A DNA stretch of 64,000 nucleotides from Escherichia coli. Its GTDB lineage: Bacteria; Pseudomonadota; Gammaproteobacteria; Enterobacterales; Enterobacteriaceae. This document shows, one piece after another, positions 26,558-37,100 of the stretch. Numbering within the stretch: position 1 is the first letter of the stretch; the number at the start of each line of letters is the position of its first letter. The notes under the pieces were generated by a model, which saw nothing but the letters and a program-made list of their open reading frames with translations, had not been told where the DNA came from and did no database searches. Made by a program: the position numbers and the translations under genes. The DNA lies in assembly GCF_003019035.1 (NCBI RefSeq), contig NZ_CP027447.1. One strand, given 5' to 3'.

Positions 26558-26633
26558 GCCGATATAGCTCAGTTGGTAGAGCAGCGCATTCGTAATGCGA
26601 AGGTCGTAGGTTCGACTCCTATTATCGGCACCA
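26558..26633 (+). tRNA. thrW: tRNA-Thr (CGT anticodon)
   Basis: 76-nt sequence GCCGATATAGCTCAGTTGGTAGAGCAGCGCATTCGTAATGCGAAGGTCGTAGGTTCGACTCCTATTATCGGCACCA with cloverleaf pairing and CCA end; downstream of proA. Confidence 0.9.
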
Positions 26634-28382: not shown

Positions 28383-29257
28383 ACCCCTACCTCTTCGAAT
28401 TCCAATTCCAATTGATCACCCCAGATTTCACATGACTCTGAACACGAACCGGTATCGAATCGCCTGGCCTGTACCATCGCCTGATACAAATTTCTGTAGT
28501 CGCTGTTGGCAGACATTCTGGCAATTCCGTCAAGCGTCAGGTGACCACGGTACATAATGTCTTTACCTGTTCTGCGATGACCATCCCTGACGTGTTTGCC
28601 TGTAACCAGCTCATTAAAAACTCGCATCAGACCTGGTTCGTCTTTACATGCAAGCCCCAGCTTTTGCGTTGACTTTTTGATGCAGAAAACACAGTTCCCG
28701 AGATGCTCCGGGATTTGCAAATCAAAAGGTTGTTTTCGCCACCACCGGATAACATCCGACTTATCAAAATCTGACAGCTCGGCAAGATACCGGACGCCCG
28801 ATTTCGGTTTCAGCCTACGGGGTTCGTCTGCACGAATACCCAGCCATGTGATGTAATTACCTCGCCCGAAATGGTTATCGCAGTATTTCGTGAAAGGGAT
28901 GAGTTTTAGCCTGTCAGTACAGAACGCGCCGCCGATGTATGGCGTGCCGTACTTTTTAACCATGTCCATAAACGGTTTAAGCACCGGCATTCGTGTCTGA
29001 ATATCCTTTGGCTCCCATTCTGTATAACCATTTGGCTGCCCAAGCTCAGGATTTATATCGACCTGTAACACAGTTAGTGGTATGTCCCAGAACTTTACAA
29101 CCTCCCGGATAAAGCGGTATGTCAGCGGATGTTCGCAACCGGTATCCATAAAGATGTAGCAGACGTTATTGCCAGCCTTTCTTTGTTCTTCCATCAGGTG
29201 AACAAGATATGCGGATGTTCTCCCGCCAGAAAAACTAACTACATGAGTTATGCACAT
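28379..29257 (-). CDS. PAPS-reductase-like PP-loop ATPase family protein (YfdS position)
   Basis: ORF-track 28379..29374; likely start at ATG 29257 (MCITHVVSFSGGRTSAYLV); SGGxxS PP-loop motif; Cys-rich C-terminus. Confidence 0.6.
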   Translation of the reverse strand: MCITHVVSFSGGRTSAYLVHLMEEQRKAGNNVCYIFMDTGCEHPLTYRFIREVVKFWDIPLTVLQVDINPELGQPNGYTEWEPKDIQTRMPVLKPFMDMVKKYGTPYIGGAFCTDRLKLIPFTKYCDNHFGRGNYITWLGIRADEPRRLKPKSGVRYLAELSDFDKSDVIRWWRKQPFDLQIPEHLGNCVFCIKKSTQKLGLACKDEPGLMRVFNELVTGKHVRDGHRRTGKDIMYRGHLTLDGIARMSANSDYRNLYQAMVQARRFDTGSCSESCEIWGDQLELEFEEVGV

Positions 29258-32233: not shown

Positions 32234-32908
32234 TTAGGCTTTGATTTTGTATCTTCTTGGTTTTCCTGAGAAAATCACAGTTCCAATTATAGAGCAATTA
32301 CCGTTGATCTTAATGTAAGGCTCAGGCCAGTTTGGGTTTAACGCTTTGAGATAACGCTGTGTCCCATCTTCTATCAACCTTTTGAAGGTGGTTTCACCTG
32401 TATCGTGCATCAATGCAATAACGTCGTCACCGTGGCAGGCAGGTACTTCAGGATCGACAAAAATCATGTCTCCCGGGCGGTACTCATCAATCATTGAATC
32501 ACCTATCACCCGCAAGATATAAGTCATTTCCCCACAGGGTACAGGGCAGGGGTACGTTTCTGCTGTGCTCAAATCAACCTCAGAATATCCAACTTCTTTC
32601 CATGCTCCGGCCTGTACCCATGATATGACAGGGACTAATGTGATTTGTTTATTAGTGATTGAAACATCAGGTTTTTTTGTGATGTTCGTTGTCTGGTGTT
32701 CTTGATCGAGCCATCCGACAGGCAGGTCGAAACATTTTTCGATGTGTCGTGCCATGCTGTCACCGATATTTTTAGTAGCACCATCTCCCATAAACCTGCT
32801 GGTCTGGGTTGGCTCGCGATCAATCATAGTGGCAAAGGAAGAATTCCCGCCAACACCATCTCTCAGTTTTCTGGCGTTAGACCGCCGGATGTCATGGATT
32901 GTTTTCAT
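32234..32908 (-). CDS. cI: CI-like prophage repressor (HTH plus S24 LexA-like peptidase domain)
   Basis: 224-aa ORF; N-terminal HTH; C-terminal S24 signature (VIGDSM ... GDMIFVDP); divergent from cro-like gene. Confidence 0.85.
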   Translation of the reverse strand: MKTIHDIRRSNARKLRDGVGGNSSFATMIDREPTQTSRFMGDGATKNIGDSMARHIEKCFDLPVGWLDQEHQTTNITKKPDVSITNKQITLVPVISWVQAGAWKEVGYSEVDLSTAETYPCPVPCGEMTYILRVIGDSMIDEYRPGDMIFVDPEVPACHGDDVIALMHDTGETTFKRLIEDGTQRYLKALNPNWPEPYIKINGNCSIIGTVIFSGKPRRYKIKA

Positions 32909-32923
32909 AACGAAATTAAAACC

Positions 32924-32995
32924 CTTGTACCGTTAAGGTACAAGTATCTTGAAGGTTCATTTCAATCATGTAATATGTACACCGGAGGTACATAT
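32924..32995. promoter_or_regulatory. Immunity-region operators (OR) with divergent promoters
   Basis: Two palindromes with GTAC half-sites between cI and cro: cttgtaccgttaaggtacaag (32924-32944) and atatgtacaccggaggtacatat (32973-32995). Confidence 0.5.
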
Positions 32996-32998
32996 TGT

Positions 32999-33199
32999 AT
33001 GAAAGCGTATTGGGACTCTTTAACCAAAGAACAGCAGGGCGAGTTGGCCGGAAAAGTTGGCTCAACACCTGGCTACTTACGGCTGGTTTTCAATGGCTAT
33101 AAAAAAGCCAGTTTTGTGCTGGCTAAAAAACTTGAGCAATACACATCAGGTGCAATTACGAAATCTGACTTAAGACCGGATATCTATCCGAAAGATTAG
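32999..33199 (+). CDS. cro: Cro-like repressor
   Basis: 66-aa ORF (MKAYWDSLTKEQQGELAGKVGSTPGYLRLV...) with GGAGG RBS; HTH-like; divergent from cI. Confidence 0.6.
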   Translation: MKAYWDSLTKEQQGELAGKVGSTPGYLRLVFNGYKKASFVLAKKLEQYTSGAITKSDLRPDIYPKD

Positions 33200-33230
33200 C
33201 AGAACACTTTCAATTTTTAACCACAGAACG

Positions 33231-33794
33231 ATGAGGCTAATCGTGGGTAAGCATCACTGGAAAATAGAAAAACAGCCTGAGTGGTACGTGAAAGCTGTCA
33301 GAAAAACTATCGCGGCGTTGCCGGGTGGTTACGCTGAAGCGGCTGACTGGCTCGATGTAACAGAAAACGCTTTATTCAACCGCCTTCGTGCAGATGGCGA
33401 TCAGATTTTCCCGCTGGGATGGGCAATGGTTTTACAGCGTGCTGGTGGCACTCACTTCATTGCTGATGCTGTGGCGCAGTCTGCAAATGGCGTCTTTGTG
33501 TCTCTTCCTGACGTCGAGGATGTAGACAACGCCGATATCAACCAACGCCTGCTGGAGGTCATTGAACAGATCGGCAGTTATTCAAAACAGATTCGTTCAG
33601 CAATTGAAGACGGTGTAGTGGAACCACATGAGAAGACAGCAATTAACGATGAGCTGTACCTCTCAATTTCGAAGCTGCAGGAGCATGCAGCACTGGTCTA
33701 CAAAATCTTTTGCGTTTCAGAAAGTAGTGACGCCCGCGAGTGTGCAGCTCCGGGCGCCGTGGCGTGTCGTGACTGTGGAGAAACTAACGCATGA
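33231..33794 (+). CDS. Hypothetical regulatory protein at the cII position
   Basis: 187-aa ORF immediately after cro; Cys-rich C-terminus. Confidence 0.35.
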
Positions 33795-34149
33795 ACAGTT
33801 TAACAACACACTACCGTCGCTCGCAACTGATTGCGCTTCCGGTTCCGGGTGGAAAAGCGAAGGTGGAGTATTGCTATGCAGTGAATGTACCAGGTGACAG
33901 GGAAATTGTAACCCACAGCTTTGCAGAGTGGGCTGTGGGGGATTTCAACCGGCAGAAGGAGACAGTCCTTTGCGACAAGTTAACCGCTGGTTCAAAGATC
34001 ACTACGGAGTGCCCGTCAGAGTCATTCGTTGGGAGCCGGAAACACAACGGGTTATCTACCTCCGCGAAGGCTATGAGCATGAGTGCTTCAGCCCGCTCGA
34101 ACAGTTTCGTCGTAAATTCAGGGAAATAGAGGTCGGTCATGAGCACTAA
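33791..34149 (+). pseudogene. Hypothetical gene split across two frames (33791..34129 and 33928..34149)
   Basis: First ORF starts coupled to the upstream stop (ATGA); second ORF ends coupled to the O-like gene start; the two overlap in different frames. Confidence 0.3.
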
Positions 34150-35080
34150 ATTAACCGGCTATGTATGGGATGGTTGCGCTGCGTCAGGCATGAAGTTATC
34201 CAGCGTGGCAATTATGGCCCGCCTGGCTGATTTCAGTAATGACGAAGGTGTGTGCTGGCCATCAATTGAAACCATTGCCCGCCAGATTGGCGCGGGGATG
34301 AGCACCGTCAGAACGGCTATCGCACGGCTGGAAGCAGAAGGCTGGTTAACGCGTAAGGCGCGTCGCCAGGGTAACCGCAATGCGTCGAATGTTTATCAGC
34401 TTAACGTTGCGAAGCTTCAGGCAGCGGCATTTTCTCAACTGTCAGATTCTGACCCGTCAAAATCTGACGCATCAAAATCTGACCAGTCAAAATTTGATGC
34501 GTCGAAATCTGGCAAAAAAGCGGGTTTTCACCCGTCAGAATCTGGCGGGGATCCGTCAGTAAAATCAAAACATGATCCGTCAGATAAAAAACCTTCTCGT
34601 CCGGACGCTTCGCAACCGGACACGCAGACGGATGAACAGGATTTTTTAACTCGCCATCCTGATGCGGTTGTATTCAGCCCTAAAAAGCGCCAGTGGGGAA
34701 CGCAGGATGATTTGACCTGCGCACAGTGGCTCTGGAAAAAAATCATCGCCCTGTACGAGCAGGCCGCCGAGTGTGACGGCGAGGTGGTTCGTCCCAAAGA
34801 ACCTAACTGGACAGCCTGGGCAAACGAAATTCGCCTGATGTGTGTGCAGGATGGTCGTACTCACAAACAAATCTGCGAGATGTATAGCCGCGTCAGCCGC
34901 GATCCGTTCTGGTGCCGTAACGTGCTCAGCCCGTCGAAGCTGCGGGAAAAATGGGATGAGCTTTCCCTGCGCTTATCGCCGTCCGTCAGCACGTACACCG
35001 AAAAACGCGAAGACCCGTACTTCAAAGCCAGTTACGACAATGTGGACTACAGCCAGATCCCGGCAGGATTCAGGGGGTGA
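34139..35080 (+). CDS. Replication initiation protein (O-like; N-terminal HTH, central iteron-encoded linker)
   Basis: 313-aa ORF; N-terminal HTH-like region (GMSTVRTAIARLEAEGWLTRK); central SKSD/PSESG repeats encoded by DNA iterons. Confidence 0.65.
   Translation: MSTKLTGYVWDGCAASGMKLSSVAIMARLADFSNDEGVCWPSIETIARQIGAGMSTVRTAIARLEAEGWLTRKARRQGNRNASNVYQLNVAKLQAAAFSQLSDSDPSKSDASKSDQSKFDASKSGKKAGFHPSESGGDPSVKSKHDPSDKKPSRPDASQPDTQTDEQDFLTRHPDAVVFSPKKRQWGTQDDLTCAQWLWKKIIALYEQAAECDGEVVRPKEPNWTAWANEIRLMCVQDGRTHKQICEMYSRVSRDPFWCRNVLSPSKLREKWDELSLRLSPSVSTYTEKREDPYFKASYDNVDYSQIPAGFRG
34441..34590. repeat. Origin-like iterons inside the O-like gene
   Basis: At least five tandem ~15-bp repeats (cGTCAaAATCTGac) from 34441 to 34513, with further degenerate copies at 34531-34590. 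Confidence 0.6.
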
Positions 35081-35571
35081 TCATGAGTCTTTTGAATGAC
35101 GTTCAGAAATTCATTGAAGCCCATCCGGGGTGTACTTCCGGAGACATTGCGGATGCTTTTGCAGGTTACTCACGACAGCGCGTTCTGCAGTCAGCAAGCA
35201 AGTTACGTCAGAGTGGGCGTGTGGCTCACCGTTGTGAAGGGGATACACGCAGACATTTCCCGCGGCTGACTGAGATACCGCAGGAGCCGGAACCGCAACC
35301 AGTTCGTGAATCCAGACCTGTGCGCAATTTCTATGTCGGCACTAACGATCCCCGGGTGATTTTGTGCCTGACCCGCCAGGCGGAAGAACTGGAGTCCAGG
35401 GGCTTATACCGTCGTGCTGCAACGGTGTGGATGGCGGCATTCCGTGAAAGCCACTCCCAGCAAGAGCGAAACAATTTTCTTGCGCGTCGTGAGCGGTGTT
35501 TACGGAAAAGCAGCAAGCGCGCTGTATCGGGTGAAGAGTGGTATCTGTCAGGGAATTACGTGGGGGCTTAA
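35077..35571 (+). CDS. Hypothetical protein (possible PerC/ANR-like regulator)
   Basis: 164-aa ORF; Arg-rich helical C-terminus; family assignment is a weak recollection. Confidence 0.3.
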   Translation: MIMSLLNDVQKFIEAHPGCTSGDIADAFAGYSRQRVLQSASKLRQSGRVAHRCEGDTRRHFPRLTEIPQEPEPQPVRESRPVRNFYVGTNDPRVILCLTRQAEELESRGLYRRAATVWMAAFRESHSQQERNNFLARRERCLRKSSKRAVSGEEWYLSGNYVGA

Positions 35572-35897
35572 TGACGACGTTAACTCAATGCCAGCAGCAG
35601 GTGCTGGATATGCTGATTTCTTATCAGAAAGAGCGTGGCTTTCCGCCAACCAATCAGGAGGTGGCAACCATGCTGGGATACCGTTCGGTGAATGCAGCGG
35701 TGGAGCATCTTCGCGCACTGGAGAAAAAAGGTGTCATCACGATAAAGCGTGGCGTGGCCCGGGGTATCACTCTTCATACCGCGGTGAAGGACGACGACAG
35801 CGAGGCGGTCGGGATTATCCGCTCACTGCTTGCCGGTGAGGAAAACGCAAGGCTGCGTGCAACCCACTGGTTACATGAGAGGGGCCTGAAAGTATGA
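35571..35897 (+). CDS. LexA N-terminal DNA-binding-domain-like protein (no peptidase domain)
   Basis: ORF-track 35538..35897; ATG at 35571 gives MTTLTQCQQQVLDMLISYQKERGFPPTNQEVATMLGYRSVNAAVEHLRALEKKGVITIKRGVARGITL, which parallels the LexA N-domain; ends after about 108 aa. Confidence 0.6.
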   Translation: MTTLTQCQQQVLDMLISYQKERGFPPTNQEVATMLGYRSVNAAVEHLRALEKKGVITIKRGVARGITLHTAVKDDDSEAVGIIRSLLAGEENARLRATHWLHERGLKV

Positions 35898-36283
35898 AGC
35901 TGATCCTGCCTTTCCCGCCCAGCGTGAACACGTACTGGCGACACCCCAACAAAGGGGCGTTTGCTGGTAAGAGCCTGATAAGCGCGGCGGGGCGAAAATT
36001 CCAGAGCGCGGCGTGCGCAGCAATAGTTGAGCAGTTACGTCGTCTGCCAAAACCAACGTCGGCACCTGCTTCAGTGGAGATCGTGTTGTTTCCTCCGGAT
36101 AACCGGATCCGCGATCTGGACAACTATAACAAGGCGCTGTTTGACGCCCTGACCCACGCGGGTGTGTGGGAAGACGACAGTCAGGTGAAAAGAATGCTGG
36201 TGGAGTGGGGACCGGTTATCCCGGAAGGGAAGGTCGAGATCACTATCAGTAAGTACGAGAAACCGGCGGGTGCAGCCGCCTGA
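35894..36283 (+). CDS. rusA: Holliday-junction resolvase RusA
   Basis: 129-aa ORF; RusA-like catalytic region (RDLDNYNKALFDALTHAGVWEDDSQV). Confidence 0.85.
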   Translation: MKLILPFPPSVNTYWRHPNKGAFAGKSLISAAGRKFQSAACAAIVEQLRRLPKPTSAPASVEIVLFPPDNRIRDLDNYNKALFDALTHAGVWEDDSQVKRMLVEWGPVIPEGKVEITISKYEKPAGAAA

Positions 36284-36302
36284 TTAAGAGGAGAAACGAA
36301 GT

Positions 36303-37100
36303 ATGAATAATCTGATGGTCATTGATGGTATTGAAGTTCGTCGTGATGCTTATGGGCGTTACAGCCTGAACGATCTGCACAGGGCTGCCGGTTCTCTGGA
36401 TAAGCATAAGCCTGCATTCTGGCTCCGCAATGAGCAAACTGAACGTTTAATAAGCGAGTTGCAGATTTGCAACTCGGTCAATATAGAGCCAGTTAACGTT
36501 ATTCGTGGTGGAAATAACCAGGGGACGTATGTCTGCAAAGAACTGGTGTATGCCTATGCAATGTGGATCAGCCCGTCATTCCATCTGAAGGTGATCCGTA
36601 CTTTCGACATGGTAACCAGCGCACCTGAAAAATTATCCGGACAGGCTGCTGACAAGATGCAGGCTGGCGTGATTCTGCTGGACTTTATGCGCCGGGAGTT
36701 AAATCTGTCTAACTCTTCAGTGCTTGGAGCCTGTCAGAAACTTCAGGAGGCTGTTGGCTTACCGAATCTGGCACCGCGCTATGCCATTGATGCTCCTGCT
36801 GATGCACACGATGGCTCAAGTCGCCCTACGCTGTCACTGAGTGCACTGCTGAAACAGTATGGTATCCGCCTGACGGCTAATCAGGCATATCACCAGATGG
36901 TGAAGCTGGGGATCGTCGAGCAGCGCGAACGATACAGCCGTACCGCGATTAACAACATCAAAAAATTCTGGTCGCTGACAGCGAAAGGCTGCATGTTCGG
37001 CAAGAACATCACCAGTCCCGCAAATCCGCGCGAGACGCAGCCGCATTTCTTCGAGTCCCGATTCCCTGAGCTGTTAAAGCTGCTCGATACCGTTCATTGA
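36303..37100 (+). CDS. KilA-N domain protein (antirepressor-like)
   Basis: 265-aa ORF; KilA-N-like N-terminus (VIDGIEVRRDAYGRYSLNDLHRAAG...PAFWLRNEQTERLISEL). Confidence 0.65.
   Translation: MNNLMVIDGIEVRRDAYGRYSLNDLHRAAGSLDKHKPAFWLRNEQTERLISELQICNSVNIEPVNVIRGGNNQGTYVCKELVYAYAMWISPSFHLKVIRTFDMVTSAPEKLSGQAADKMQAGVILLDFMRRELNLSNSSVLGACQKLQEAVGLPNLAPRYAIDAPADAHDGSSRPTLSLSALLKQYGIRLTANQAYHQMVKLGIVEQRERYSRTAINNIKKFWSLTAKGCMFGKNITSPANPRETQPHFFESRFPELLKLLDTVH

Follow-up and report, generated by a model that had tools for sequence, protein, structure and literature searches.

Introduction

The replication origin of phage lambda lies in the middle of its initiator gene, O, as a set of dyad-symmetric sites with an A/T-rich element to their right. 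The N-terminal domain of O reads these sites, the origin itself encodes a flexible linker of the protein, and O is partnered by P, the phage analogue of DnaC, in the pR operon after cII. Iteron plasmids such as pSC101, R6K, P1 and RK2 likewise use a winged-helix initiator that binds tandem iterons; they have no loader of their own and use the host DnaB-DnaC, and the P1 oriR also has GATC repeats. Here we analyse a stretch of Escherichia coli DNA of 64,000 nucleotides (contig NZ_CP027447.1 of assembly GCF_003019035.1; the whole stretch is called the window), in which a prophage gene at 34139-35080 on the plus strand encodes a 313-residue O-like replication initiator. The comparisons below argue that 34441-34595, inside this gene, is very probably the replication origin of the prophage. 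The fuller reading, in which the phage supplies no helicase loader and a DnaT-like tail on the initiator would lead into host DnaB-DnaC loading, we hold to be probable at a lower level of confidence.

Other described systems come close to this one in different respects. The gene 18 initiators of phages P22 and L are lambdoid and carry their own iterons within the gene, six copies of an 11-bp repeat in the case of phage L (bioRxiv 10.1101/2020.10.05.325894); they differ from the present initiator in the sequences and lengths of their repeats and in having a phage DnaB-type helicase (gene 12) as their partner. DopC of Cellvibrionales and Oceanospirillales is O-like, with an HTH_36 N-terminal domain and a DnaT-related C-terminal sequence, and the parallel between O-P, DopC-DopE and DnaT-DnaC has already been drawn (Brezellec et al. 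2017, PMC5509034). DopC is chromosomal, possesses a DnaT C-domain and a P-like loader partner, and has no iterons (PMC5509034), whereas the initiator described here has iterons, a lambda O-type C-domain, only the tail of DnaT, and no loader. E. coli DnaT itself has neither a sequence-specific DNA-binding domain nor iterons, and acts at forks, not origins.

The iteron arrangement is a lambda-style origin within O and ordinary in kind, like inferences having been published for P22 and phage L. The system is a variant: its initiator is of lambda O type but lacks a P partner and closes with a DnaT tail. In the literature that we searched, of which our coverage was incomplete, we found nothing on this origin, on the tail motif in phage initiators, or on the rule relating tails to loaders that we describe below; a paper on replication of the 'Eru' Shiga toxin phages mentions neither iterons nor DnaT. 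That rule is a more valuable outcome than the iterons alone.

Results and Discussion

An array of palindromic iterons within the initiator gene

The original prediction had placed at least five tandem copies of a repeat of about 15 bp at 34441-34590, and the repeat-finder check bears this out: Tandem Repeats Finder reports a period-15 array of 4.3 copies at 34448-34511. Read directly, the repeat unit is a 13-bp near-palindrome (6-1-6) with the consensus GTCARAWTCTGAC. Five such sites, starting at 34441 (GTCAGATTCTGAC), 34456 (GTCAAAATCTGAC), 34471 (ATCAAAATCTGAC), 34486 (GTCAAAATTTGAT) and 34501 (GTCGAAATCTGGC), keep a strict register of exactly 15 bp start to start across 34441-34513. A sixth site lies 33 bp past the fifth (34534-34546, GTCAGAATCTGGC), an offset that is conserved at 33 bp (48 bp in Klebsiella). 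The spacer between them (34514-34533, AAAAAAGCGGGTTTTCACCC) contains an A6 tract, a T4 tract and a small hairpin, and relatives share its A-run...TTTT(C/G)ACCC pattern. With up to two mismatches allowed, the consensus has 18 strand-hits across the window, where shuffled sequence has 4.4 +/- 2.5 and none of 100 shuffles reaches 18; 11 of these 18 hits fall inside 34441-34546. One lone near-consensus iteron (ATCAAAATCTGAC, 1 mismatch) stands at 28763-28775, 5.7 kb upstream of the array, which is at chance level for a single site.

Further degenerate copies had also been predicted. Extra repeats are indeed present, although they belong to a second, A-rich type that contains Dam sites: two GATC boxes at 34550 (GATCCGTCAGTAAAA) and 34574 (GATCCGTCAGATAAA), 24 bp apart, within an A/T-rich stretch at 34550-34595. 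The GC content is 32% over 34555-34595 compared with 53% across the initiator gene, and the GATC boxes are conserved in every iteron subtype. We regard this stretch as a candidate unwinding element. As predicted, the repeats are in frame within the open reading frame (ORF) and encode the SKSD/PSESG linker, the translated peptide being LSDSDPSKSDASKSDQSKFDASKSGKKAGFHPSESGG.

No rival repeat cluster was seen near the array, and a scan of 32800-35700 found no promoter-like site. No DnaA box (TTWTNCACA) occurs within 5 kb, unlike in iteron plasmids, whose origins contain DnaA boxes and lie outside the rep gene; we rejected recruitment of the helicase via DnaA boxes on this ground.

Domain anatomy of the initiator and comparison with lambda O

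The initiator matches PHROG 391 ('replication initiation O-like', E 9e-135) and is 99.7% identical to SfII_41. An AlphaFold2 model built with a 34-sequence alignment divides it, in order, into an N-terminal winged helix, the iteron-encoded disordered linker, a lambda O-type C-domain and the DnaT-like tail. The winged-helix DNA-binding domain (residues 1-98; 34139-34432, plus strand) is the presumed reader of the iterons. Pfam finds HTH_36 (PF13730) here at residues 23-70, with 42.9 bits against a gathering cut-off of 25, together with GntR-like and DnaD_N-like matches; it gives no match in the initiator to Phage_rep_O (PF04492), the family of the lambda N-domain. Linker residues 103-161 are modelled as disordered, with predicted local distance difference test scores (pLDDT) below 50, while the folded C-domain (residues 164-278; 34628-34972, plus strand) is helical with a small hairpin and scores above 90. 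This C-domain is a homologue of that of lambda O (39.3% identity across residues 166-277, E 1e-17), and phi80 gp15 also matched. The protein closes with a disordered tail (residues 281-313; 34979-35077, plus strand) that ends in DYSQIPAGFRG, of which SQIPAGFRG is encoded at 35051-35077. A sequence search of the Protein Data Bank returned MarR-type matches only for the whole initiator and none for the tail alone.

The six sites at 34441-34546 thus fall between the N-domain and the C-domain, as in lambda modules that hold the origin inside the initiator, and the dyad symmetry of the sites, the flexible linker encoded by the origin and the position in the pR operon after cII are likewise shared with lambda. 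To the right of the sites, where lambda has its A/T-rich element, lies the candidate element described above, and the N-domain would read the sites as in lambda. The likeness to the lambda origin that had been proposed, with another repeat length, therefore stands. The differences lie in the N-domain family, in the sites (six of 13 bp every 15 bp, compared with four of 18 bp at wider spacing in lambda), in the next gene, which is PerC-like where lambda has P, and in the tail, which is DnaT-like where lambda O ends in …TDWIYGVDL. Because 13-bp palindromes recur every 15 bp, neighbouring sites, and the dimers on them, would be placed on roughly opposite faces of the helix, unlike the same-face wrapping of lambda.

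Comparative evidence that the array is an origin

Five in-register sites, one offset site and the GATC boxes recur in the initiators of Klebsiella phage 1 LV-2017, Citrobacter phiNP, Yersinia YeP3 and coliphage phiP27. These relatives share the N-domain (60-84% identity), and their C-domains are of three unrelated kinds. The array is kept with the N-domain while the C-domains differ, so that N-domain and repeats travel together, as in lambda.

A scan of one genome per species gave 80 further loci, which with the reference loci make 91 initiator genes; a scan of viral contigs with the family alignment returned only loci 98-100% identical, which are uninformative for covariation. Across the 91 genes, drawn from different species, the repeat sequence varies with the recognition helix and the wing of the N-domain. 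The STVRTAI / RRxGNRNASNVY type goes with the iteron GTCArAATCTGAC, the RSTVITAI type with TTCAGAATCTGAA, the Rac/Edwardsiella type ((K/E)STVKxAI / RKxGGRN, Rac-like KSTVKAAI) with TCAAnnnTTGAC, the Proteus type with TCCAGAATCTG, and the SfV/cdtI type (KRSVMNHI) with GGTGCAGGAGATTCACC at a spacing of about 22-24 bp; lambda has its own site, ATCCCTCAAAACGAGGGA.

The motif is also strongly concentrated in the linkers. Linkers of 57 genes hold 267 copies of an 11-bp core, or 14.7 per kb, with 3-7 in each gene; the remaining sequence of these loci, about 449 kb, has 23 copies (0.05 per kb), so that the local enrichment is roughly 290-fold. Synonymous codons in the linkers are biased towards spelling the iteron motif: Ser is TCA or TCT in 84% of linker cases and in 39% of those in the rest of the same genes (p 2e-70), Asp is GAC in 74% and 42% (p 3e-17), and Lys is AAA in 96% and 69%, in statistics that, like the Fisher tests given below, are descriptive and ignore shared ancestry. 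In the DP[SQ] boxes downstream, Asp is GAT in 84%, thus spelling GATC. Covariation with the N-domain, co-inheritance across C-domain swaps, local enrichment and synonymous-codon bias all lend support to the prediction of origin-like iterons in an O-like gene. We propose that dimers of the N-terminal winged-helix domain would bind the six palindromic iterons, and that the adjacent A/T-rich stretch with its two GATC boxes would be the site of duplex opening.

Several points weigh against this proposal, beginning with the disregard of shared ancestry in the statistics just given. As many as 266 of the 267 iteron copies share one reading frame, so that selection on the linker at the protein level and at the DNA level is not fully separable. 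With 32% GC over about 41 bp, the A/T-rich element is a short and modest one that has nothing like the 40-bp AT block of lambda. The binding of iteron DNA and the firing of the origin by the initiator are, moreover, deduced from comparison of sequences.

The frame, the predicted disorder of the stretch and the variation from 3 to 7 copies among relatives are what would be expected if the repeats were simply a slippage-prone, low-complexity SKSD linker between two domains, with no function at the DNA level and with the origin elsewhere. We consider this very improbable. Every unit is palindromic although coding needs no dyad symmetry, the motif is fixed at synonymous positions, and the repeat covaries with the winged-helix domain where drift would be expected. 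One phiP27 iteron lies out of frame and codes for LQNLD in place of PSDSG, a single case. The array also sits where lambda ori sits in a homologous gene, and the neighbourhood offers no other repeat cluster or DnaA box.

It is also possible that the initiator binds these sites mainly for autoregulation, copy control or incompatibility, by handcuffing as in iteron plasmids, and that replication starts elsewhere. Plasmid iterons do serve both jobs, and the weakness of the A/T-rich element would fit. The sites, however, lie mid-gene, distant from the operon promoter region near 33000 and in an interval (32800-35700) without a promoter-like site; an array of iterons with an A/T-rich, GATC-containing element behind it has the architecture of an origin, and no alternative origin candidate was seen. 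A mainly regulatory array therefore seems very improbable to us, and we retain the reading of 34441-34595 as an origin.

Close relatives differ widely in how many SKSD units, and with them iterons, they contain (columns 120-170 of an alignment including P0046, P0072 and P0079), and some Klebsiella and Pantoea proteins contain long SKSD runs. This variation is consistent with a slippage-driven change in the number of iteron copies at the origin.

A DnaT-like tail on a lambda O-type domain

The C-terminus of the initiator had been called DnaT-like, which holds for the tail and fails for the folded domain. The last nine residues of the initiator, SQIPAGFRG, are identical at eight of nine positions by BLASTP to the last nine of E. 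coli DnaT, SQIPPGFRG, so that the two proteins share the extreme C-terminal motif SQIP[A/P]GFRG; DnaT conserves this end strongly, as [IV]PxGFR[GD]. When the tail was included, hhalign aligned only DnaT 147-179 (E 3e-5). The DnaT domain proper (PF17948, the three-helix-bundle C-domain that binds single-stranded DNA) is absent from the initiator by Pfam, and a profile comparison gave a probability of 0.06%. The resemblance is thus limited to the last ~25 residues, which copy the DnaT tail, the globular C-domain being by homology that of lambda O.

The tail behaves as a separate unit. On the same lambda O-type C-domain we find tails ending …VDYSQIPAGFRG and …VDYSLPENSGFR[ST], a Rac-type tail …VNHISEPDTEIPPGFRG that matches the DnaT sequence VNTVSEPDSQIPPGFRG at 14 of 17 positions, the lambda-like …TDWIYGIE… and …HWNSPEAWENTL. 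The DnaT-like tail is found too on the unrelated phiNP-type and P27/SfV-type C-domains. The DNA of the window and that of SfV are unrelated up to about 35003 and then near-identical through the tail into the next gene, which places a recombination junction at the start of the tail and makes the tail a separate mosaic module. The most conserved segments of DnaT include KRDxNxxSEPDxxIPxGFRG, and orthologues with 32-45% identity, some of them very A/T-rich and probably from endosymbionts, still have [IV]PxGF[RK].

Two other roles for the tail were dropped by reasoning: a beta-clamp motif (QxxLxF-like), as neither DnaT nor the phage tails conserve the Q, and a mimic of the SSB tip, as the Phe is not C-terminal.

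The missing loader

No match appeared anywhere in the window when it was searched by tblastn with P proteins (that of lambda and two other P-like ones), DnaC proteins (that of E. coli and two DnaC-like ones from phages) and DnaB helicases (that of E. coli and a DnaB-like one from a phage). SfII is an isolated phage (PMC3772137), and its complete genome of 58 genes likewise contains no helicase, primase or loader. The earlier statement that no P- or DnaC-like loader follows the initiator is thus extended to the whole window and to a complete relative.

Immediately after the initiator comes a PerC/YfdN-like gene (35083-35571, plus strand; Pfam PerC E 9e-10; PHROG 1324, 'transcriptional activator'), which encodes a putative transcription factor and not a helicase loader. 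One may ask whether this product, or the LexA-DNA-binding-domain protein encoded at 35571-35897, performs the loader function and the tail is irrelevant. A PerC-like gene does directly follow many DnaT-tailed initiators, and half of the PerC-like protein has no known function (PHROG 23071). Such a gene is nevertheless missing after many others, such as those of Klebsiella 1 LV-2017, phiNP and cdtI, where a Dam methylase is next; it also follows a WxxIWK-tailed initiator, and its domains resemble those of transcription factors. We rejected the PerC-like protein as a hidden loader for its inconsistent presence, and loading by either early product is in our view extremely improbable.

Tail class predicts loader class

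Sorting the 91 loci by tail revealed a clear association. The 52 loci with a DnaT-like (GFR) tail have lambda P in no case, a DnaC-like gene in four and no loader in 48, and the unassigned downstream ORFs in this group belong by Pfam to DUF977, QueH, MT-A70, ANT, SIR2, ParB-HTH, HNH and DUF1627, with no loader among them. A W-rich tail (WNxxxGW, WIYG) is accompanied by lambda P in 13 of 13 loci. The four loci with a PHWFVGG tail all have both a DnaC-like and a DnaB-like gene, and the 17 loci with a WxxIWK tail have no loader in 15 of the 15 with data. The association holds within clusters of initiators that share a C-domain: P follows 11/11 W-tailed against 0/14 DnaT-tailed initiators of lambda O type (p 2e-7), and 2/2 against 0/35 of phiNP type (p 0.0015).

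An independent test came from a search with DnaT, which returned many phage-type initiators with varied N-domains and a genuine DnaT C-domain, ending in GFR, W-rich or long acidic tails. Full-length Phage_lambda_P follows each of the three W-tailed members examined. Two acidic-tailed initiators (L183 and L184, pattern …LxEPLDxEER…D[WR]…) precede short P proteins, 157 and 179 residues long (L183 3995-4468; L184 3995-4534), which match the C-terminal half of lambda P (residues ~101-221) but begin with a different N-terminal sequence. One GFR-tailed initiator is followed, after a gap of 298 bp, by a 125-residue remnant of lambda P (102-202) without the N-terminal half, and another, on a short contig, by an ORF without similarity to P. 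In total, full-length P lies downstream of 16/16 W-tailed and 0/54 GFR-tailed initiators (p 4e-16, shared ancestry ignored), the latter comprising 48 with no loader, four with a DnaC-like gene, one with the P remnant and one on the short contig without P. The rule holds across three unrelated C-domain types.

The N-terminal half of P differs between tail classes. Published hints that P touches O through its N-terminal part agree with this, as does the report that replication is lost when a stop codon takes away the last 35 codons of lambda O (PMC6022878; PMC12661323).

The four DnaC-like genes that follow DnaT-tailed initiators mirror the host dnaT-dnaC operon. Other phage initiators, as noted, carry the full DnaT C-domain and tail. 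Rac-type initiators with the most DnaT-like tail (L096 and L146 versus L009 and L100) differ in the adjacent DnaC-like gene, which some keep and others have lost; where it is missing, DUF977 is directly next. The pattern suggests that the phage copy of DnaC may be dispensable. The Proteus/Providencia initiators (L164, L165, L168, L169) are those that end in …DPHWFVGG and have a DnaC-like and a DnaB-like gene downstream of them, 4/4, a further pairing of tail and loader.

Possible routes from the tail to the host helicase

The original prediction also suggested a different route for recruiting the host helicase, and the strong correlation between tails and loaders supports this. With no helicase or loader encoded by the phage, a flexible tail that copies the tail of DnaT would plug the initiator into the host DnaB-DnaC pathway. 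Such tails would be interchangeable modules that decide which loader is used, and we infer from the domain swaps that the tail may be a swappable loader-selection motif. The partner that we favour is DnaC or the DnaB-DnaC complex, because W-rich tails pair with P, the DnaC analogue, because GFR tails pair with DnaC-like genes whenever any loader is present, and because dnaT and dnaC form one operon. Host DnaT, PriA or PriB would be alternative partners.

It is tempting to extend this to a modular code in the tails of O-like initiators, in which W-rich tails specify a full-length lambda P-type loader, long acidic tails a short P, and IPxGFRG tails DnaC, whether phage-encoded or in the host's DnaB-DnaC. 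The IPxGFRG of DnaT would then be the contact from the preprimosome (PriA-PriB-DnaT) to DnaB-DnaC, and DnaT-DnaC a domesticated pair of initiator and loader. We offer this wider scheme tentatively, as a possibility that may well prove wrong.

Some evidence pulls away from a tail that docks on DnaC or DnaB-DnaC. DnaT lacking its last 18 residues forms dimers, not trimers (Szymanski et al. 2013, as quoted in PMC5314882), a 2026 preprimosome structure paper proposes that the N-domain of DnaT, not the tail, might recruit DnaB/DnaC (PMC13377028), and no DnaT-DnaC contact is on record (PMC5778457). Docking on DnaT, PriA or PriB, or self-assembly, is for these reasons a serious rival. The origin would be as described above, and the tail would either co-oligomerise with DnaT or dock on PriA/PriB, and DnaB would be loaded by the restart primosome; alternatively, the tail would drive self-oligomerisation of the initiator or binding of single-stranded DNA. 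The role of the DnaT tail in trimerisation and the undocumented DnaT-DnaC contact speak for such a route. The presence of the tail on at least four unrelated C-domains (lambda O, phiNP, P27 and true DnaT types) argues against docking on the initiator's own domain, and the pairing of tail classes with loader classes, DnaC-like genes included, is best fitted by a partner on the loader side. On balance we think this rival unlikely, though clearly deserving of attention, and continue to prefer docking on DnaC or DnaB-DnaC.

The model is of no help to that preference, as the pLDDT of the tail is only 50-60 and gives no structural hint of its role. A further difficulty is the WxxIWK class, whose members have an extension of about 60 residues with W..IWK and, in the 15/15 with data, no P, DnaC or DnaB nearby; replication without a phage loader is therefore possible without a DnaT-like tail. 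Members of this class are L102-L106, L115, L118, L142, L144, L147, L149, L150, L153, L170, L171 and YeP3 (L005). The class implies what may be yet another route of host recruitment.

Judging from these natural domain swaps, the helicase loader used by an initiator is set by its short C-terminal tail and not by the folded C-domain, and one class of tail is a copy of the most conserved motif of DnaT. The rule makes two questions directly testable, namely the contact between O and P (PMC12661323) and the recruitment of DnaB-DnaC by DnaT. The iterons, for their part, add one type of lambdoid origin and should aid annotation of a replication module that is very common in prophages of E. coli, Shigella, Klebsiella and Salmonella, and whose genes are at present mislabelled as 'primosomal protein', 'GntR regulator' or 'helix-turn-helix protein'. 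Iteron types may also help to predict replication incompatibility groups.

Prophage context and neighbouring genes

The DNA at 33200-36300 is 97-98% identical to that of phages SfII, SfIV and PhiR29, and by this likeness the element carrying the initiator gene is an SfII/SfIV-type lambdoid prophage, apparently integrated at thrW. A tRNA-Thr gene (anticodon CGT) at 26558-26633, the sole RNA gene detected in the window, lies adjacent to the insertion. We take it to be thrW, the attachment site of the serotype-converting phages of Shigella flexneri, and it probably marks both the attachment site and the left end of the prophage.

Upstream of the initiator are an S24 repressor gene (32234-32908, minus strand), a CII/CP76-like gene (33231-33794) and a DUF4222 gene of 73 codons (33928-34149, E 3e-19); downstream, beyond the PerC-like gene and the LexA-DNA-binding-domain gene, follow RusA (35894-36283) and a KilA-N protein gene (36303-37100). 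Two overlapping ORFs compete at 33791-34149: the DUF4222 frame and a 112-residue frame (33791-34129) that corresponds to the SfII annotation SfII_40 and has no Pfam match. A DUF4222 gene also directly precedes the initiator in unrelated loci (L011, L184), and the SfII annotation of this region may use the wrong frame.

At the junction between the PerC-like and LexA-like genes (35571), or right after the initiator, SfII, SfV and many relatives have a Dam / N6-adenine methylase gene, which is absent at 35571 from the window, as from SfIV. The conserved GATC boxes raise the possibility of a tie between phage Dam and origin function. The product of 35571-35897, 108 residues long, consists of a LexA-type DNA-binding domain alone (Pfam E 3e-19) without the S24 protease domain, and could be a non-cleavable mimic of LexA; its gene is kept beside RusA across this phage group.

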